A DNA stretch of 64,000 nt from assembly GCA_963667145.1 (NCBI GenBank), contig OY762943.1, positions 145,459-209,458 on the forward strand, in the 5' to 3' direction. This document shows positions 2,725 to 61,270 of the stretch, piece after piece. Source of the DNA: Candidatus Cloacimonadota bacterium. GTDB lineage: Bacteria > Cloacimonadota > Cloacimonadia > G963667145. A program made the position numbers and the translations under genes. The notes under the pieces are model-generated. The model saw nothing but the letters and a program-made list of their open reading frames with translations. It ran no database searches and was not told the origin of the DNA. How positions within the stretch are numbered: position 1 is the first letter of the stretch; each line of letters opens with the position of its first letter.

Positions 2725-4254
2725 TTGCAAAATGGGACTAAAAATTCCCCTCCTTTGGAGGGGTTGTCGAAGACCGGGGTGGTTGAACCTTTCAACGAAG
2801 CGAAATATAAAGCACTGTTGGAAGGGCTGGAAGCAGTTGAATTAGATAAAAGTATAGTTTTTAAAAATAATAAATACTTGAGAATTGATAATGAATTTTT
2901 CAATAAAAGATTTATTAAAGAAATAATTAAACTTGAGGAAAAGCCTAATGAAAAATTAATTAATATTTCTAATTTAATAACTGACTTTGGGGCTTTTTCG
3001 CAAATGAATTTTGTGAATTATATTGAAAAAGGAGTTCCTTTTATTAGAAATCAAAATGTTAAAGATAATTTAATAGATACTACAGATATTGTTTATGTTG
3101 ACAAGAAAACATACAATAAACTTTCTCTTAAATTAGAAGAAAATGACATTTTAATACCAAGAGCTGGAACATTGGGGAATGCAGCTGTAGTTTCAAAATC
3201 ATTACTTCCTGCTACTGCTAATCAGAATTTAGCTCAAATAAAACCAAATTTGAATAAAATAAAACCATATTATTTAACAACTTTTTTATGTTCAAAATTT
3301 GGATTAAATCAGATAGAAAGATTTTCTACTGGAAATGTTCAACAATGGTTAAATTTAGAAAATATTAACAATATTAAAATTCATATTCCATCAGAAAATT
3401 TTCAAAATTCAATTCATAATAAAATAATTAGTTCAATTGCATTAAAAAACAAATCCAAACTAACCTATTCCCAAGCTGAGAACTTATTACTTGAAACTCT
3501 TGGTTTAAAAAATTTTGAACCAAGCTGTGAGCCTGTAAACATTAAAAGTTTTAAAGAGTCTTTTGGCTCTTCGGGGCGATTAGATGCAGAATATTATCAG
3601 AAAAAGTATGAGGAAATTGAATTTGCTATAAAAAATTATTCAAATGGTTATAAACATTTTGGAAAATTTATAGAAAATTATTCAACAGGCTATCCATACA
3701 AAAGTGAAACTTACATTGAAAAAAAAGGTGTCCCGTTGATTAGAATAAATAATATAAACAAAGGGAATTTAGATATTTCAAACGCAATTCATATTCCTAA
3801 ACAAGACATAAATTTGAGTGTAAAAGATATTGCAGTTGAAAATGATATTTTAATTTCAATGTCTGGAACAATTGGAAATTCTTGTAAAATCCCAAAAGGA
3901 GTAAAAGCAGTAATAAACCAACGAATTATGAGAGTTACTCCGAAAAATTATAACAATGAAGTATTACCATTAATAATAAATTCTCAAATTGGAAATTTAC
4001 AATTGAATCAAATTGGAACAGGTGGCGTTCAAACAAATATTTCATCAAATGACATTAAAAATATTTTGATACCTGTATTAACAGAAAATTCACAACAACA
4101 AATCGCTGATTTGGTTGAAAAAAGTTTCAGCTTAAAGGCTCAATCCGAGCAACTACTCAAAACTGCCAAAAATGCGGTAGAAATCGCCATTGAGGAAAAT
4201 GAAGAGATTGCTATGGAGTATTTAAAACAAGAAGAGAATAAAAATGCCAAATAA
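2725..4254 (+). CDS. hsdS: Restriction-modification specificity subunit (HsdS/BcgIB-like) with two target-recognition domains; N-terminal boundary uncertain
   Basis: Two TRD halves: GVPFIRNQNVKDNLIDTTDIVYV and GVPLIRINNINKGNLDISNAIHIP. These resemble the EcoKI HsdS TRD start IRANNIQNGKFDTTDLVFV. Central and C-terminal helical spacer regions are present. Very AT-rich. The first 20 codons are encoded by hairpin copy 4, so the true start may be downstream (e.g. TTG 2878). Confidence 0.75.
   Translation: MQNGTKNSPPLEGLSKTGVVEPFNEAKYKALLEGLEAVELDKSIVFKNNKYLRIDNEFFNKRFIKEIIKLEEKPNEKLINISNLITDFGAFSQMNFVNYIEKGVPFIRNQNVKDNLIDTTDIVYVDKKTYNKLSLKLEENDILIPRAGTLGNAAVVSKSLLPATANQNLAQIKPNLNKIKPYYLTTFLCSKFGLNQIERFSTGNVQQWLNLENINNIKIHIPSENFQNSIHNKIISSIALKNKSKLTYSQAENLLLETLGLKNFEPSCEPVNIKSFKESFGSSGRLDAEYYQKKYEEIEFAIKNYSNGYKHFGKFIENYSTGYPYKSETYIEKKGVPLIRINNINKGNLDISNAIHIPKQDINLSVKDIAVENDILISMSGTIGNSCKIPKGVKAVINQRIMRVTPKNYNNEVLPLIINSQIGNLQLNQIGTGGVQTNISSNDIKNILIPVLTENSQQQIADLVEKSFSLKAQSEQLLKTAKNAVEIAIEENEEIAMEYLKQEENKNAK
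2747..2783. repeat. GC-rich palindromic hairpin repeat copy 4 (CCCCTCC-ttt-GGAGGGG + t-TGTCGAAGACCGGGGTGGT tail), in the annotated 5' end of the specificity gene
   Basis: Direct repeat of copy 1 including the tail. GC-rich island in a ~25% GC context. Confidence 0.7.
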
Positions 4255-5146: not shown

Positions 5147-6796
5147 ATGAATTCAATATTTAAGCCGAAATTTTTTACAGTCCTGAGAGCAGGAATTGGA
5201 AAGAAGCAGATAGTCGTCGACATCTTGTCGGGAATAGTCGTTGGCATTGTCGCTTTGCCTTTGGCGATAGCGTTCGCCGTGGCTTCTGGTGTGTCTCCCG
5301 AAAAAGGTCTGATTACAGCCATTGTAGCTGGATTTATCATCTCTTTGCTTGGTGGCAGTCGCGTGCAGATTGGAGGTCCGACTGGTGCCTTCATCGTCAT
5401 AGTTTATGGAATCGTTGAGACTTATGGGATAGATGGTCTTATCATTTCCACTATTTTGGCGGGAGTGATTTTGATTATTTTTGGACTGCTGAAAATGGGT
5501 ACTTTGCTCAAATTTTTTCCGCATTCTTTGATAGTTGGCTTCACCAGTGGGATAGCTGTGACGATTTTTTCCACGCAAATCAAGGACGCCTTGGGTCTGT
5601 CCATTGCCAAAGTTCCGTCCGAATTTTATCAGAAGTGGCTTGTGTATTTTGCAAATATCTCACAGGTGAACTGGACTGCTATTGCCATCACTGTGTTCAC
5701 GATTTTGGTAACTTTCCATTCCAAAAAATTCACCTCCAAAATTCCCGGTTCGTTCTTGGCGATTGTCATCGTTACGCCTTTGGTCTATTTTTTGCAGTTG
5801 GATGTGGCGACCATCGAGACTTTTTTCGGTGCAATTCCCAGTAGCTTCAGCTTTGCGTTTCCGCGAGTTAGCCTTGGCGATTTGCACAACTACATCGCAC
5901 CTGCTCTGACCATCGCTTTGCTTGGCGGAATAGAATCTTTGCTCTCGGCTGTGGTTGCGGACGGCATGATTAGTGGCAAGCATCGTTCCAACACGGAATT
6001 GATAGCTCAGGGGATAGCGAATATTGTAACGCCATTTTTCGGTGGAATCCCTGCCACAGGTGCTATAGCTCGCACAGCCACGAATGTGAAAAACGGGGGA
6101 AGAACTCCGATTTCTGGCATGGTGCATGCTCTCACGTTGCTGTTGATAATGCTCTTCCTCGGTCGCTGGGCAAAGCTGATTCCCATGTCGTGCTTGGCTG
6201 GAATTTTGATAGTGGTTTCCTACAATATGAGCGAGTGGCGGTCATTTGTGGCGATTTTGCGTGGCTCTTATTTCGATGTTCTTATTTTGCTCACAACATT
6301 TTTGATTACCGTGTTTTTCGATTTGACTTTGGCAATTGAAGTTGGCGTTATGCTCTCAGCAATTCTTTTCATGAAGCGGATGTCCGATATTAGCGAAAAG
6401 CGGATTGAGGATGTTGTGGATAACGATATTCTGGACAATTATTCCGACTTGCCCAGAGAGATAAAAATTTATGAGATAAGCGGACCTTTATTTTTTGCGT
6501 GTGCCAGAACTTATTCCGAGGCTATTGCCGAGATAGGATTGCGGTGCAAGGTGCTTATCATCAGGATGCGTCACGTTTCTTTTATCGACCAGACAGGCTT
6601 GCACAATTTGCACGATGTTTTGTCTATTTTGCGGAAGAAAAATATCTCCGTGATTATCTCTGGTGTTAATGCCGAAGTCAAGGAAGAACTGATAAATCAC
6701 CGTTTTGACGATTTGATTTCCCCAGAGTTGATAGTGGACAATTTCAAAGTTGCTACCGAAAAAGGCAAAGAGATTTTGCAGGCTAACGAGTCCTAA
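5147..6796 (+). CDS. SulP-family inorganic anion (sulfate/bicarbonate) permease with C-terminal STAS domain
   Basis: 549 aa, about 10 predicted TM segments. N-terminal GIVVGIVALPLAIAFAVASGVSPEKGLITAIVAGF is the SulP signature region. C-terminal STAS-like fold. Confidence 0.85.
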   Translation: MNSIFKPKFFTVLRAGIGKKQIVVDILSGIVVGIVALPLAIAFAVASGVSPEKGLITAIVAGFIISLLGGSRVQIGGPTGAFIVIVYGIVETYGIDGLIISTILAGVILIIFGLLKMGTLLKFFPHSLIVGFTSGIAVTIFSTQIKDALGLSIAKVPSEFYQKWLVYFANISQVNWTAIAITVFTILVTFHSKKFTSKIPGSFLAIVIVTPLVYFLQLDVATIETFFGAIPSSFSFAFPRVSLGDLHNYIAPALTIALLGGIESLLSAVVADGMISGKHRSNTELIAQGIANIVTPFFGGIPATGAIARTATNVKNGGRTPISGMVHALTLLLIMLFLGRWAKLIPMSCLAGILIVVSYNMSEWRSFVAILRGSYFDVLILLTTFLITVFFDLTLAIEVGVMLSAILFMKRMSDISEKRIEDVVDNDILDNYSDLPREIKIYEISGPLFFACARTYSEAIAEIGLRCKVLIIRMRHVSFIDQTGLHNLHDVLSILRKKNISVIISGVNAEVKEELINHRFDDLISPELIVDNFKVATEKGKEILQANES

Positions 6797-6918
6797 ATTT
6801 ATTTTTTGGAAAAAGTGATTGACACTGAACTCAATAATTTATCGAGTGAATGAAAGTGATTAAGATTTACGGAGATAAGAGAGTGAGAAACAATATCGGA
6901 CACGAAGCAGTAGCTAAC

Positions 6919-6987
6919 ATGATGATGCGAATGTATGGCATGATGATGAGCATGCCTGTTGCTGTTCGGTGGCGTTTTTTGGTTTGA
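6919..6987 (+). CDS. Candidate Met-codon-rich leader peptide MMMRMYGMMMSMPVAVRWRFLV (8 Met in 22 codons)
   Basis: ATGATGATGCGAATGTATGGCATGATGATGAGCATG... read directly from the sequence. Lies 85 nt upstream of a homocysteine/methionine biosynthesis operon and is followed by a terminator-like hairpin. No strong SD, so speculative. Confidence 0.3.
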   Translation: MMMRMYGMMMSMPVAVRWRFLV

Positions 6988-7008
6988 TTTCCAGTTGAGA
7001 CTGGATAG

Positions 7009-7046
7009 AAAAGGAGTCATCGGACAAAACGGTGGCTCCTTTTTTA
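7009..7046 (+). terminator. Hairpin + U-tract (AAAAGGAG...CTCCTTTTTT) between leader ORF and DUF39 gene; candidate attenuator terminator
   Basis: 7-8 bp stem (aaaaggag/ctcctttt), about 19-nt loop, T5-6 run, 26 nt before ATG 7073. Preceded by small hairpin CCAGTtgagACTGG at 6991-7004. Confidence 0.35.
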
Positions 7047-7072
7047 GTAAATAATTAGAGAGGAAATAGAAG

Positions 7073-8227
7073 ATGAAAACGATTGAAGAGATTAAAAAGA
7101 AGTTGGCGAGCGGAGATGCGGTAGTCATTACTGCGGAACAAGCAACTCAACTTGCCAAGACAAAATCGGCTTTGGAAATTAGCAAAGAGGTTGATGTGGT
7201 GACCACGGCGACTTTTGCTCCAATGTGTTCTACTGGATGTTTTTTGAACTTCGGGAACTTGGATTTGCCTATTCGCATGGAAAAGATTTTCCTCAACGGA
7301 GTGCCTGCTCACGGAGGCTTGGCTGCTGCGGACACATATTTGGGTGCTACTGCGGAAAATCCCGCTAACCCTGGCTATGGTGGAGCACATGTTATTTGCG
7401 ATTTGATTGCGGGCAAAAGCGTTTGCTTGGAAGCTCAGGGCAAAGGTACAGATTGCTACCCACGGAAAGAGGTGAAAACTTATTTCAAGCTGGAGGACAT
7501 AAATCAAGCCTATTTGTACAATCCGCGTAACGCTTACCAAAACTATCCAGTGGCTGTTAATCCCAGCGATAGAGACATTTACACTTATATGGGCAAACTG
7601 CTTTCCAACAGTGGGAACGCCAGTTATTCCAGTGCGGGCGAGCTTAGTCCTCTGCTCAACGACCCTCAGATGCGAACAATCGGTGTTGGCACACGAATTT
7701 TCTTGGTTGGTGCCAGAGGCTATGTTAGTTGGCAGGGAACGCAATATGACAATCAGCGTGAGACCAACGAATTTGGTATTCCACTGATTCAATCGGCGGC
7801 TTTAGCTTTGATAGGTGACATGAAGAAAATGAATCCAGACTACATTAAACCACTGATTTTACAAAAATATGGCGTAACCATTTTCTTGGGCATCGGTATT
7901 CCCATTCCTATTCTGAACGAAGAGATTGCGGCGAATGTCAGCATCTCCAACGAGCATATCCAGACCTACGTTCGCGATTATGCCATCAATGATCACCCCA
8001 TATTGTGTAAGACTAACTATAAGGAATTGTTCAGCGGTGAGATAGATGTTAATGGCAAAAAAATCAAGACTTTCTCTTTTTCCAATTTGGACAAAGCCAG
8101 AGAGATAGCGGATATTTTGGCGGACAATATCAGGTCGGGAATTTTCCAGATAAATCAGCCTGTGGAACTATTTGAAGACAAAATCGTTCAGAAGCCATTG
8201 ATTTTGCGGGAGAAGGATGAACGATAA
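7073..8227 (+). CDS. DUF39/COG1900 homocysteine-biosynthesis protein (L-aspartate-semialdehyde sulfurtransferase-like, MA1821 family)
   Basis: 384 aa. Motifs VDVVTTATFAPMCSTGCFLNFG, GTDCYPRK, NPRNAYQNY, GELSPLLNDPQMRTIGVGTRIF are characteristic of DUF39 proteins of methanogens and anaerobic bacteria. RBS gagagg. Confidence 0.75.
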   Translation: MKTIEEIKKKLASGDAVVITAEQATQLAKTKSALEISKEVDVVTTATFAPMCSTGCFLNFGNLDLPIRMEKIFLNGVPAHGGLAAADTYLGATAENPANPGYGGAHVICDLIAGKSVCLEAQGKGTDCYPRKEVKTYFKLEDINQAYLYNPRNAYQNYPVAVNPSDRDIYTYMGKLLSNSGNASYSSAGELSPLLNDPQMRTIGVGTRIFLVGARGYVSWQGTQYDNQRETNEFGIPLIQSAALALIGDMKKMNPDYIKPLILQKYGVTIFLGIGIPIPILNEEIAANVSISNEHIQTYVRDYAINDHPILCKTNYKELFSGEIDVNGKKIKTFSFSNLDKAREIADILADNIRSGIFQINQPVELFEDKIVQKPLILREKDER

Positions 8228-8939
8228 TTTCCGCGTTTACAGAAGCTTGAGTGCAGGTAGCTGGAACAGGGTGCAGGCGTGCCACAAAGACAGCGACATC
8301 GTGGTTCATTATCAGCCTGACGTGAATGGCGAACTTGTCAAGAAAGCACTTTTGGAGAAGATTGTAACGCTAAGAGAGAGTTTGGAGCAGTATCCTCATT
8401 TCGATAGCTTGCGTTCGTTGCTCCCTGTGGCAGTTAGGGAGGATGACACGGATGATGTTGTGGAGCTAAAGAAGTGTTCACAGCAGGCTAGTGTTGGGGC
8501 TTTAGCTGGAATTGCAGGATTTTTCGCCAAAAAAGTTGGAGAATTTTTGTTGCAAAAATTTAATTTAGGCAAAATATTGGTGGAGAACGGTGGAGATTTG
8601 TATTTGTTCGGAGACGATAAGACGAAAGTTTTGTTGCCGAGCGGAGACGAAAACAGTCAGGATTTGTGCATTACGATTGACGAATTTCCGATGGGTGTAG
8701 CCACTTCTTCGGGCAAGAACGGACCGAGTTTCAACAAAGGAAAAGCCGACAGCGTGTGTGTTGTGGCGAAGAGTGCCGTTTTGGCAGATTGCTTTGCCAC
8801 TGCGTATGCAAACCGCCTCAAATCTTCCGAAGATTTACAAGAGGTTTTGAATGGCTTAGACCCTGATGTGCTTGGGTTCATTGCTTGTGTAGATGGTCAA
8901 TATGCCATAAAGTCCAAATTCGCTGTGGAGTTTTGCTAA
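8217..8939 (+). CDS. UPF0280/COG2122 ApbE-like protein (MA1715 family, implicated in sulfide-dependent homocysteine synthesis)
   Basis: 240 aa. Overlaps the DUF39 gene by 11 nt (translational coupling). Size and gene context match COG2122 partners of COG1900. Confidence 0.45.
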   Translation: MNDNFRVYRSLSAGSWNRVQACHKDSDIVVHYQPDVNGELVKKALLEKIVTLRESLEQYPHFDSLRSLLPVAVREDDTDDVVELKKCSQQASVGALAGIAGFFAKKVGEFLLQKFNLGKILVENGGDLYLFGDDKTKVLLPSGDENSQDLCITIDEFPMGVATSSGKNGPSFNKGKADSVCVVAKSAVLADCFATAYANRLKSSEDLQEVLNGLDPDVLGFIACVDGQYAIKSKFAVEFC

Positions 8940-8972
8940 AGGTTCAAAAAAAAATAAATTTCGGGAAAGTGT

Positions 8973-9926
8973 ATGAAAGTTGTAGAAGCTGTAAAACAAG
9001 GTAAACCAGTTTTATCTTTGGAAGTGTTGCCTCCAGTCAGAGGTTCGGAACTTGGCAAGGTGCTTGCTCCTTTGGAGAGATTGGCGAAATACAATTGTCA
9101 GTTTGTTAATGTTACCAATCATCAGCGGGCGTATAAGTTGGTGCAGACTGCCACAGGCGTGGTGAAGGAAGCTACAAATCGCAGAACTGGCACGGTGGGA
9201 GTTGCTGCGGCTATTCAGTACAAACTGGGAATTGAAGCTGTTCCGCACCTCATTTGTGGCGGAGTTGACAAATACGAGTTGGAAGATTTGCTCATCAATC
9301 TGAACTTTTTGGGCATCAAGAACCTCTATGTAATCAGAGGTGATCCGCAGATGGGAGCCAGAGTTTTTGTTGCTAATGAAGACGGCTTTGACCATGCAGA
9401 CCAGATGGTGGTTCAGATTAGGAAGATGAACGAGGGGCAATATCTTTTCCCCATAGACAATGCAGGCAAAAGTGATTTTTGCATTGGAATTGCCGCTTAT
9501 CCCGAAAAGCATTTTGAAGCTCTGAATATGGAAAGAGATTTGTTCTATCTAAAGCAAAAAGTCGCTTCAGGAGCGGATTACATTATCACTCAGATGTTTT
9601 ATGATGTGCAAAAATTCAAGGAGTTCGTGAATTTGGTTCGAGCGGAAGGTATAGATATTCCGATAATACCAGGGATAAAGCCGATAGGTTCGCAAAAGAT
9701 TTTGGCAACACTCCCCAGAGCTTTCTATTTTGACGTTCCCAAAGATTTGGTGCAAGGCTTGTCTGACGCTAATAGCCGAGAAGAGGAACGAAAGTTTGGG
9801 GTGGACTATGTAACTAAGATGATAGAAGAATTATTAGATTTTGGCGTTCCAGGAATACACCTATTCACCATGGGTAGCAGCCGATTGACCGAGCAATTGT
9901 TAGAAAGGTTCAAAGGCGTTTTTTAG
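8973..9926 (+). CDS. metF: 5,10-methylenetetrahydrofolate reductase
   Basis: 317 aa. LSLEVLPP (SFEFFPP-like), AVPHLICGG, IGIAAYPEKH, YIITQMFYDV, IPIIPGI and IHLFTMG align with the E. coli MetF motifs. Confidence 0.85.
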   Translation: MKVVEAVKQGKPVLSLEVLPPVRGSELGKVLAPLERLAKYNCQFVNVTNHQRAYKLVQTATGVVKEATNRRTGTVGVAAAIQYKLGIEAVPHLICGGVDKYELEDLLINLNFLGIKNLYVIRGDPQMGARVFVANEDGFDHADQMVVQIRKMNEGQYLFPIDNAGKSDFCIGIAAYPEKHFEALNMERDLFYLKQKVASGADYIITQMFYDVQKFKEFVNLVRAEGIDIPIIPGIKPIGSQKILATLPRAFYFDVPKDLVQGLSDANSREEERKFGVDYVTKMIEELLDFGVPGIHLFTMGSSRLTEQLLERFKGVF

Positions 9927-9952
9927 AATAACCTCTTATTTTTCAATATTTT

Positions 9953-9977
9953 CTCTCTGCAACAAAAAAGCAGAGGG
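9953..9977 (+). terminator. Hairpin CTCTCTGCaacaaaaaaGCAGAGGG after metF
   Basis: 7/8-bp stem, 9-nt loop, followed by aaaattctt and a TTGACG -35-like hexamer. Confidence 0.4.
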
Positions 9978-10045
9978 AAAATTCTTGACGATTATTTGCG
10001 GGTTAATTTAAGTTAATCGAAACATAAATTAAGTGAGGAGGTAAG

Positions 10046-61089: not shown

Positions 61090-61227
61090 ATGGATAAGTA
61101 TGAATGCAATGTATGTGGTTATATATATGACCCAGCAGAAAATAGTGACGTTCCATTCGCAAATTTGCCTGACGATTGGGAATGTCCAGTTTGCGGAGTA
61201 GGGAAAGACGAATTCTCTAAAATGTGA
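61090..61227 (+). CDS. Rubredoxin (45 aa; below the ORF-track size cutoff)
   Basis: [45 protein letters not shown] has two CxxCG knuckles. RBS ggaggg 5 nt upstream. Confidence 0.8.
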
Positions 61228-61237
61228 TGATTGTATT

Positions 61238-61270
61238 GGGGTCATCCAGAGAGGGTGACCTTTTTTTTTT
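61238..61270 (+). terminator. Rho-independent terminator GGTCATC-cagagag-GGTGACC-T10
   Basis: 7-bp stem (one mismatch) and a run of 10 T. Confidence 0.8.

Follow-up and report, generated by a model that had tools for sequence, protein, structure and literature searches.

Could an operon for methionine synthesis be controlled through the translation of methionine codons in its own leader? This question is raised by positions 6797-7072 of a 64,000-nucleotide (nt) stretch of Candidatus Cloacimonadota DNA (contig OY762943.1; the whole stretch is hereafter called the window), where the intergenic region that separates a SulP-family permease gene (5147-6796) from an operon of three genes, DUF39 being the first, contains a short open reading frame (ORF) rich in ATG codons. 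Leader-peptide attenuation is a textbook form of coupling between translation and transcription that has been described for tryptophan, histidine, phenylalanine, leucine, threonine and isoleucine/valine and, incompletely, for cysteine. Control of methionine genes is attributed to S-adenosylmethionine (SAM) riboswitches, T-boxes and protein regulators (MetJ, SahR), and to our knowledge no methionine leader-peptide attenuator is known. We consider it likely that the region analyzed here is a Met-codon leader-peptide transcription attenuator that controls the DUF39, COG2122 and metF operon.

All features that define a classical attenuator at the sequence level are found in this region and support such a reading in silico, including (i) a short ORF with a start codon and a ribosome-binding site in the 5' leader; (ii) clustered codons for the amino acid of the downstream pathway; (iii) a hairpin between regions 1 and 2 of the leader (1:2) that can sequester region 2 when the leader is untranslated; (iv) an antiterminator (2:3) that uses the terminator arm and is predicted by folding, with weak covariation, to be disabled by a ribosome at the stop codon; and (v) an intrinsic terminator (3:4) before the first gene with no promoter in between. 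The initial annotation of the window, made from the letters alone, had already suggested a classical leader-peptide attenuator keyed to methionine, and conservation, reading frame and pairing now lend it support.

The first gene of the operon matches the Pfam family HcyBio/DUF39 (E = 4.9e-136), and the second one (8217-8939) is COG2122/ApbE-like (precomputed PF27030 match); the operon genes were assigned by Pfam, NCBIfam and precomputed Pfam matches. In Desulfovibrio, DUF39 and COG2122 are genetically required for the synthesis of homocysteine from aspartate semialdehyde and sulfide (PMC5764234), and therefore the operon belongs to the methionine pathway. Together with metF, which encodes methylenetetrahydrofolate reductase (MTHFR), it is predicted to supply homocysteine and methyltetrahydrofolate for methionine. 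The coordinates of the operon and of the leader elements are collected in Table 1.

Table 1. Elements of the candidate methionine attenuator and the operon downstream of it (window coordinates)
Feature	Position	Strand	Sequence or description
Promoter-like block	6810-6826	+	AAAAAGTGaTTGACAC (also AAAAAGTGnTTGACAC); TTGACA at 6819-6824; invariant columns in alignment A1
Shine-Dalgarno-like GGAG	6871-6874	+	8 nt upstream of the conserved leader start codon
Leader ORF	6883-6987	+	34 codons when counted from the start column that is conserved, V/M-RNNIGHEAVANMMMRMYGMMMSMPVAVRWRFLV, then stop
Region 1	6895-6902	+	AUCGGACA, codons Ile-Gly-His; pairs with the 5' half of region 2
Putative regulatory Met codons	6919-6954	+	8 ATG in 12 codons, MMMRMYGMMMSM; inner hairpin GGCATG..CATGCC at 6937-6956
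Region 2	6963-6980	+	UGUUCGGUGGC-G-UUUUUU; pairs with region 1 (protector/pause hairpin) or region 3 (antiterminator)
Leader stop codon	6985-6987	+	predicted ribosome footprint there about 6970-6997, over the 3' half of region 2 and the U-run
Small hairpin	6991-7004	+	CCAGU-ugag-ACUGG; side branch within the antiterminator
Region 3	7009-7026	+	AAAAGG-A-GUCAUCGGACA; terminator 5' arm and loop start; partner of region 2
Intrinsic terminator (3:4)	7010-7045	+	AAAGGAGUCAUCG / CGGUGGCUCCUUU, U6 tract; ends 27 nt before the DUF39 start
Predicted regulated operon	7073-9926	+	DUF39/HcyBio 7073-8227; COG2122/ApbE-like 8217-8939; metF (MTHFR) 8973-9926

Leader ORF and its conservation

Direct reading of the frame from ATG 6919 to TGA 6985-6987 gives MMMRMYGMMMSMPVAVRWRFLV, a peptide of 22 codons with eight ATG starting at 6919, 6922, 6925, 6931, 6940, 6943, 6946 and 6952, among them two triplets, and 85 nt separate the end of the stop codon from the DUF39 ATG at 7073. 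This ORF, with the same numbers and distance, had been described by the initial annotation; its layout holds and only its coordinates were off by one (ATG at 6919, not 6920). Eight ATG per 22 open codons is the maximum of the window, the remainder of which tops out at six, and in 200 first-order Markov simulations of 64 kb each the highest count was four to six.

A protein search with DUF39 identified orthologous loci on five complete Cloacimonadota chromosomes of about 1.56 Mb, all metagenome-assembled genomes (L004-L008; 78-87% identity), and on two additional short contigs (L050 and L051), the next relatives being at most 59% identical. The leader is present in all seven, and together with the window they form the set of eight leaders used below. 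In each of the seven orthologous loci fetched, the leader ORF is found with conserved Met codons and with its frame kept up to the last of them, as expected if the annotation of a Met-keyed leader peptide is right. The third codon positions of DUF39 are 44-57% identical to those of the window, and therefore neutral sites are nearly randomised at this distance. Against this background, the region 2 motif TGTTCGrTGGCGTTTTT (6963-6979), which is unique in the window, has 16 of 17 columns invariant across the eight genomes, followed by the terminator 5' arm in region 3 (9/12) and the Met block (23/38), while the stretches between the elements have none (0/20 at 6866-6885 and 0/16 at 6903-6918).

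Judging from the alignment, the leader ORF most likely starts at GTG 6883 behind a Shine-Dalgarno (SD) sequence, which makes it 34 codons long. The start-codon column of the eight leaders reads GTG (window), GTG, ATG, ATG, TTG, ATG, ATG and ATG, and in every one of them a purine-rich SD-like sequence lies 4-9 nt upstream of it. In the window, the spacing of GGAG (6871-6874) to the start resembles that of the GAGG of DUF39 itself. The lack of a strong SD noted in the initial annotation is therefore true of the 22-codon version only and does not apply to the conserved start at GTG 6883.

The relatives have five to eight in-frame ATG in the Met block, with occasional replacements of ATG by GTG, AAT or AAG. 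Region 1 and ATGCGAATG are 30 or 27 nt apart, and ATGCGAATG and the last in-frame ATG are 27, 24 or 21 nt apart; the differences in leader length are thus multiples of three up to the last Met codon. Beyond this codon they are not: region 2 follows at 7, 8 or 9 nt, and the spacer before the terminator measures 39-52 nt. As a result, the same region 2 nucleotides are translated in three frames (VRWRF, LFDGVFD and CSMAFLTN, each followed by a stop), and the relatives have their stop codon (TGA or TAA, in the frame that each of them uses) beginning 5-13 nt downstream of GGCG. Such a frame, conserved as far as the final Met codon but no further, is what characterises a leader peptide, and it fits neither a functional small protein nor a pure aptamer. 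Selection thus appears to act on the frame for as long as it encodes Met, on the presence of a stop codon soon downstream of region 2, and on region 2 itself as a nucleic acid.

Met-Pro is a frequent ending of the Met codon run (MMMSMP, MMMP, MMCMP, IMMP, MMAMP), for example in the window (6946-6957) and in the leaders of L006, L007 and L058, and this ending recurs even among leaders that are unrelated in sequence. Proline is a slow substrate of peptidyl transfer, and the Met-Pro end might sharpen ribosome stalling.

Two other readings of the ORF were considered and rejected. Recoding of UGA was dismissed, as TGA terminates 7 of the 48 long ORFs in the window. An ORF on the minus strand (6799-7128, 109 aa) overlaps the DUF39 start, and its open length in the relatives is anywhere between 56 and 110 aa; it is explained by the ATG runs, whose complement has no stop codons. 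A scan of metagenome DNA with TGATGCGAATGNNNGGNATGATG returned 38 loci, all of them chance or repeat matches and none with region 2, and the element appears to be confined to a narrow lineage within the metagenome collection scanned.

Pairing alternatives and the proposed switch

The terminator has a G+C-rich core stem of 10 bp, GGAGTCATCG-gacaaaa-CGGTGGCTCC (7013-7039), followed by T6 at 7040-7045, and is lengthened by flanking A/U pairs to 7010-7045 (dG -19.2 kcal/mol). It is found in all relatives, where its dG ranges from -12 to -20 kcal/mol. Each leader sequence folds a good terminator by itself; in alignment A3, the 3' arm is one column out of register, and its low percentage of paired columns is an artefact of that alignment. 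There is no space for a promoter between the terminator and the DUF39 gene, and since only 27 nt lie between them, the operon is expected to be expressed solely by read-through. The 3' half of the terminator constitutes region 4 (7030-7045).

The octamer ATCGGACA occurs twice, in region 1 (6895-6902) and in the terminator 5' arm and loop (7019-7026), and the presence of AUCGGACA in both regions 1 and 3 explains the choice of partner that is available to region 2. Consensus folding of six leaders with RNAalifold yielded the terminator and a 1:2 hairpin in which AUCGGACA (6895-6902) pairs with UGUUCGGU (6963-6970). With an extension by GAAAC/GUUUU, this hairpin surrounds the Met codons, and all of its consensus pairs are kept, being either the same or changed on one side, with none broken. 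In single-sequence minimum free energy (MFE) structures, the 1:2 helix is formed by seven of the eight leaders, and L051 forms a 2:3-like pairing instead.

To represent a stalled ribosome, we folded only the RNA between the 3' side of a ribosome with its A site on a Met codon and the terminator loop, i.e., before region 4 exists. Under this constraint, a helix between regions 2 and 3 is obtained for all eight leaders (dG -16 to -19 kcal/mol), tying up 11-13 of the 12-13 nucleotides of the terminator 5' arm (12 of 13 in the window). In the window, UGUUCGGUGGC (6963-6973) pairs with GUCAUCGGACA (7016-7026), and UUUUUU (6975-6980) with AAAAGG (7009-7014). Moving the A site to the stop codon lowers the number of paired arm nucleotides to 4-7 (dG -2 to -6 kcal/mol; 8/8 leaders), and the terminator is then free to form. 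Over the eight sequences, 92.6% of the cells in the 2:3 helix are standard pairs, compared with 47-63% when the partner is slid by one to three columns. The G/A and A/G differences between the window and L004 on the one hand and the other six leaders on the other turn G-U into A-U and U-A into U-G, without breaking a pair.

Alternative terminator and antiterminator pairings, anticipated for a classical attenuator, are thus present in every copy. Both hairpins that had been seen downstream of the ORF in the initial annotation, a small one and one with a U-tract, are confirmed at 6991-7004 and 7010-7045, but the place of the small hairpin needed refinement: it is a side branch inside the antiterminator, and the pivotal element is region 2 (6963-6979). 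At the corresponding site, L005, L006, L007, L050 and L051 are predicted to have a hairpin of another sequence (GAGG/GGGG..CCUC) that does not form under every folding condition, and constrained folds of L008 contain only a weak non-homologous stem.

Conservation among the relatives starts at the TTGACA-containing block (Table 1), which is likely the promoter, and we infer that transcription starts near 6848-6852. In most relatives, a loosely conserved TTTG is found about 19 nt downstream of TTGACA (6810-6850, alignment A1). This recalls the -33/-7 promoter type of Bacteroidota and might represent a TTTG...TTTG-like arrangement. By analogy, the promoter may be of the Bacteroidota type, which would fit the affiliation of Cloacimonadota with the Fibrobacterota-Chlorobiota-Bacteroidota (FCB) group.

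We propose that the attenuator senses the supply of charged elongator Met-tRNA. Transcription would begin just past the conserved TTGACA block, and the leader RNA would encode the 34-codon peptide with eight Met codons in its middle and have a choice between three mutually exclusive pairings, 1:2, 2:3 (antiterminator) and 3:4 (terminator). When Met-tRNA is ample, the ribosome would reach the stop codon at 6985, with region 2 covered or just melted; after its release the 1:2 hairpin would re-form, the 5' arm of the terminator would be free to form 3:4, and RNA polymerase would stop at about 7045, 27 nt before DUF39. When Met-tRNA is scarce, the ribosome would stall among the Met codons, all eight of which lie between regions 1 and 2, and keep region 1 away from region 2, either because region 1 is inside the footprint (stalls at 6919-6927) or by steric separation. 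Region 2 would then pair with region 3 as the latter emerges, so that the terminator would not form and the operon would be transcribed. If the leader is not translated at all, 1:2 and 3:4 would both form, leading to superattenuation.

Points against the attenuator and competing explanations

Several observations weigh against the proposed attenuator. Equilibrium folding with a 28-nt ribosome mask keeps the terminator (P ~1) in the window, L004, L007 and L008 and gives a mixed outcome in L005, L050 and L051. We judged it to be the wrong model, as it lets region 1 pair round the ribosome and ignores the order of synthesis. Since equilibrium favours the terminator in four of the eight leaders, the antiterminator would win only under the kinetic and steric assumptions of the trp model, which needs region 1 to be unable to reach round the stalled ribosome and 2:3 to form ahead of the synthesis of region 4. 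In the window, just the 3' half of region 2 is covered when a ribosome is at the stop codon. The helices vary too little to show compensatory double changes, of which there are essentially none; a single 2:3 pair varies on both sides, and shuffles equal that. A sigma-70 scan found no canonical -10 element at the putative promoter. The start codon in the window genome is uncertain: besides GTG 6883, it could be ATG 6919 or, as the frame extends open upstream as far as that codon, ATG 6850, the latter applying if the transcript begins earlier. The mechanism also has a built-in conflict, as a shortage of methionine should lower fMet-tRNA as well and reduce initiation on the leader, favouring termination. 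Finally, several of the informative out-group DUF39 loci, namely L009/L060 and L059 (Marinimicrobia) and L010 (Elusimicrobia), have neither a leader ORF nor an Rfam match.

A bolder reading goes beyond the sensing of Met-tRNA by stalled translation. The nascent Met-rich peptide might itself programme the arrest, tuned by Met-tRNA or by free methionine or SAM, and the Met-rich leaders, some of them in tandem, might represent an undescribed and recurrently evolved class of methionine sensors in uncultivated FCB-group lineages that replaces SAM riboswitches. It is suggested by the invariant Arg, Gly and Pro residues and by the Met-Pro end recurring in unrelated leaders, and we consider it improbable.

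Somewhat less probable is that the region is an unrecognised riboswitch or tRNA sensor, in which the AUG-rich stretch and the 1:2 hairpin would form an aptamer (for SAM, methionine or uncharged tRNA-Met) acting on the same terminator, with the ORF being incidental. The Met block and region 2 are indeed conserved at the nucleotide level, as a structured RNA would be, as is the inner hairpin GGCAUG..CAUGCC; GGUGGC in region 2 faintly recalls the T-box core, and one distant DUF39 locus (L055) has a SAM-I riboswitch at this position. Nevertheless, a sensitive cmscan of 6000-8000 at E<=10 detected no SAM-I to SAM-VI, SAM-SAH, SAH (S-adenosylhomocysteine), T-box (RF00230) or other relevant Rfam family, an outcome in favour of the annotated leader-peptide attenuator; the sole return was a meaningless aspC match on the terminator. 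No match at the gathering level was identified in the whole window or in the orthologous loci. Because the same scan detects the SAM-I riboswitch of L055, the negative result for the window leader is informative. An aptamer would also be expected to behave differently in evolution: the start-codon column and the SD are conserved, insertions and deletions respect the frame exactly to the last Met codon, and single ATG codons become GTG, AAT or AAG without compensating changes. Furthermore, the diverged leader of L052, described below, keeps a Met-rich ORF with the stop codon placed over the antiterminator without any sequence similarity, unlike an aptamer.

It is very unlikely that the leader acts through nascent-peptide arrest of the TnaC type, in which a core MMRMxGMM(M/C)MP would stall the ribosome from within the exit tunnel, perhaps modulated by methionine or SAM, rather than through methionine hunger. 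The Arg (CGA), Gly and Pro residues of the Met block are invariant or nearly so and the Met run closes with Met-Pro in several unrelated leaders, but the nucleotides of these three codons are also constrained by RNA pairing, and the leaders of L052, L057 and L058 have Met richness in common but no peptide motif. Moreover, an arrest induced by the ligand would have the wrong sign, turning a biosynthetic operon on while its end product is plentiful.

The least plausible explanation, to which we give hardly any weight, is that the ORF is an independent Met-rich micro-protein (e.g., metal-binding, as Met-rich motifs are known Cu(I) ligands), or the RNA a small RNA with its own terminator or the strong terminator of SulP, operon control being unrelated: independent gene callers do annotate the ORF as a gene in three assemblies (L002, L003 and L050), but close relatives use three different frames for the last third of the peptide, which hence has no conserved protein sequence, a homology search with the 45-aa leader peptide gave no candidates, the 27 nt from the U-tract to the DUF39 ATG leave the operon without a promoter of its own, the leader stays with the operon in L005-L008 that have no SulP gene upstream, and no role would be left for the complementarity between region 2 and the terminator arm, although it is conserved.

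Related loci, known systems and genomic setting

The order DUF39, COG2122, metF is kept in L004-L008 and in L052, whereas the SulP gene is found upstream of the leader only in the window and L004, and other genes occupy this place in L005-L008. The leader thus remains constant while the upstream gene varies, and therefore the element belongs to the operon and not to SulP.

Among the more distant loci, L052 (DUF39 59% identical), a singleton, is closest to the window clade, and its operon continues with metH after metF. Its leader has no significant nucleotide similarity to that of the window (local score 23 versus 17.7 +/- 2.3 for shuffles). It carries TTGACA, a terminator (-17.5 kcal/mol) that adjoins the gene, and the ORF MKNKAMNNLRNTMPVLMSQMMMAMREYSHWCLL of 33 codons, nine of them Met including the start codon (eight ATG by other counts). 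This ORF starts with ATG, with only AAAAGG directly abutting it as an SD-like sequence. An antiterminator, UCUCAUUGGUGUUUGUUG / CGCAGGAGCCAUUGAGA, overlaps the 3' end of the ORF; 10 of 12 arm nucleotides are paired while the ribosome is on the Met codons, and 2 of 12 once it is at the stop codon. According to these folds, an unalignable leader of L052 would share the design of the one in the window.

In two other uncultivated lineages, two successive units, each of a small ORF and a terminator, precede operons of aspartokinase, DUF39, NIL/ferredoxin and COG2122 genes (L057:770-1079 and L058:715-1100). Their first units have Met-rich ORFs (MQYMIMQMKRSIMMPFLKRYSE and MRCTGLTLNTEMFMAMQTMLINLQRCSG) with ATG starts and strong SDs (GAAGGAG in L057 and AAAAGGAG in L058), the second units have a weaker SD, GAGG, and the second ORF of L058 is also Met-rich (with FFNMSMMAMPYLFYECLE). 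An antiterminator overlapping the stop codon is predicted for the L057 unit (-9 kcal/mol), and the pairings in L058 are weak. The first unit of L057 also has a match to the Rfam Thr_leader model that is below threshold (30.8 bits, E 0.031; gathering score 55). This arrangement is suggestive of tandem Met attenuators, analogous to tandem riboswitches. In L055 (DUF39 57% identical), a SAM-I riboswitch (L055:2152-2256, 68.5 bits) precedes the DUF39, NIL/ferredoxin and COG2122 operon, and its equivalent location indicates that this position is a usual site of attenuation for the methionine pathway.

Similar to E. coli trpL and the his, phe, leu, thr and ilv leaders, the window element has a short, putatively translated ORF rich in codons of the end product, a set of alternative pairings (1:2, the 2:3 antiterminator and the 3:4 intrinsic terminator, the last of which immediately precedes the first structural gene), and a stop codon sited so that a finishing ribosome would disable the antiterminator. 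The terminator (about -19 kcal/mol) is at least as stable as the antiterminator, which is also the case in trp, and therefore the choice between them must be kinetic. Unlike these leaders, the element would sense methionine, and in the window the regulatory codons are located in the 1:2 loop and not inside region 1. It also differs in its host, a member of Cloacimonadota, in its DUF39/COG2122 operon, and in that methionine is also needed to initiate the window leader. It has no sequence similarity to any leader family, and the Rfam models Thr_leader, His_leader, Leu_leader, Trp_leader and Phe_leader do not match it.

The cys genes of Actinobacteria, including mycobacteria, have Cys-rich leader ORFs upstream (PMC1262725; bioRxiv 10.1101/834739), which are comparable in that a sulfur amino acid is sensed for a biosynthetic operon through its own codons, which form a run in a short ORF upstream. 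However, no conserved intrinsic terminator or antiterminator accompanies the Cys-rich leaders, for which Rho-dependent or translational mechanisms have been proposed (PMC1262725), whereas the window element has the full set of hairpins. With SAM-I riboswitches (S-boxes) it shares premature termination before methionine pathway operons, at the same site as in L055; the SAM-I aptamer senses SAM directly and needs no translation, whereas the window leader would report the charging of Met-tRNA. The charging of Met-tRNA is also monitored by the Met-specific T-boxes of Lactobacillales and other Firmicutes, which similarly use an AUG triplet and a terminator/antiterminator switch, but T-boxes work without an ORF and recognise uncharged tRNA directly by means of the stem I specifier and the T-box bulge, whereas the window leader has a coding signature.

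Literature searches found no description of a methionine leader-peptide attenuator, although subscription journals may hold an earlier one. For example, a comparison of Actinobacteria reported no RNA structures at their methionine operons, with S-boxes handling methionine elsewhere (PMC1262725), a survey of attenuation mentioned methionine only with SAM riboswitches and T-boxes (PMC2965389), and a reconstruction in delta-proteobacteria found S-boxes only (PMC545781). The class of mechanism is textbook, and what is new is the amino acid, the phylum and the pathway. If the attenuator operates as proposed, cells can gauge methionine via tRNA charging instead of SAM, and the use of Met-tRNA for initiation of the leader itself is a design problem worth study. 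Classical attenuation would be extended to Cloacimonadota, a candidate phylum without cultured genetics to which the uncultivated source organism belongs. The leader would provide the first regulatory handle on the recently discovered DUF39/COG2122 pathway of homocysteine synthesis and a compact, portable Met-responsive switch, and its eight conserved copies, one diverged copy, possible tandem copies and a SAM-I relative would make a clean case of the replacement of regulatory mechanisms at one locus.

Several further observations concern the operon and its surroundings. The operons of the window, its clade and L052 have no adjacent NIL/ferredoxin gene; in the distant loci L053-L058, this gene directly follows DUF39, except for L056, whose locus ends too early. 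The NIL/ferredoxin gene is required together with DUF39 in Desulfovibrio and methanogens, and it may be located elsewhere in the 1.5-Mb genome. Downstream of the metF stop codon, a hairpin without a proper U-tract, CTCTCTGC-aacaaaaaa-GCAGAGGG (9952-9978), probably marks the end of the met operon, and is followed by TTGACG and by genes of a branched-chain-type ATP-binding cassette (ABC) transporter from 10046 on.

The search for other attenuators with a terminator before a gene in the window yielded no candidates other than hairpins located within or downstream of genes and the terminator of a small rubredoxin-like gene, all of which were rejected. The rubredoxin-like locus (61092-61270) comprises a 45-codon ORF (CPVCG) with a strong SD and a hairpin with T10 located 27 nt before the next ORF, and it represents a small gene of the ordinary kind. 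A type I restriction-modification specificity gene (HsdS, Methylase_S) is located immediately upstream of the SulP gene at 2725-4254 (and 230-2698) of the window and is probably part of a type I restriction-modification cluster.

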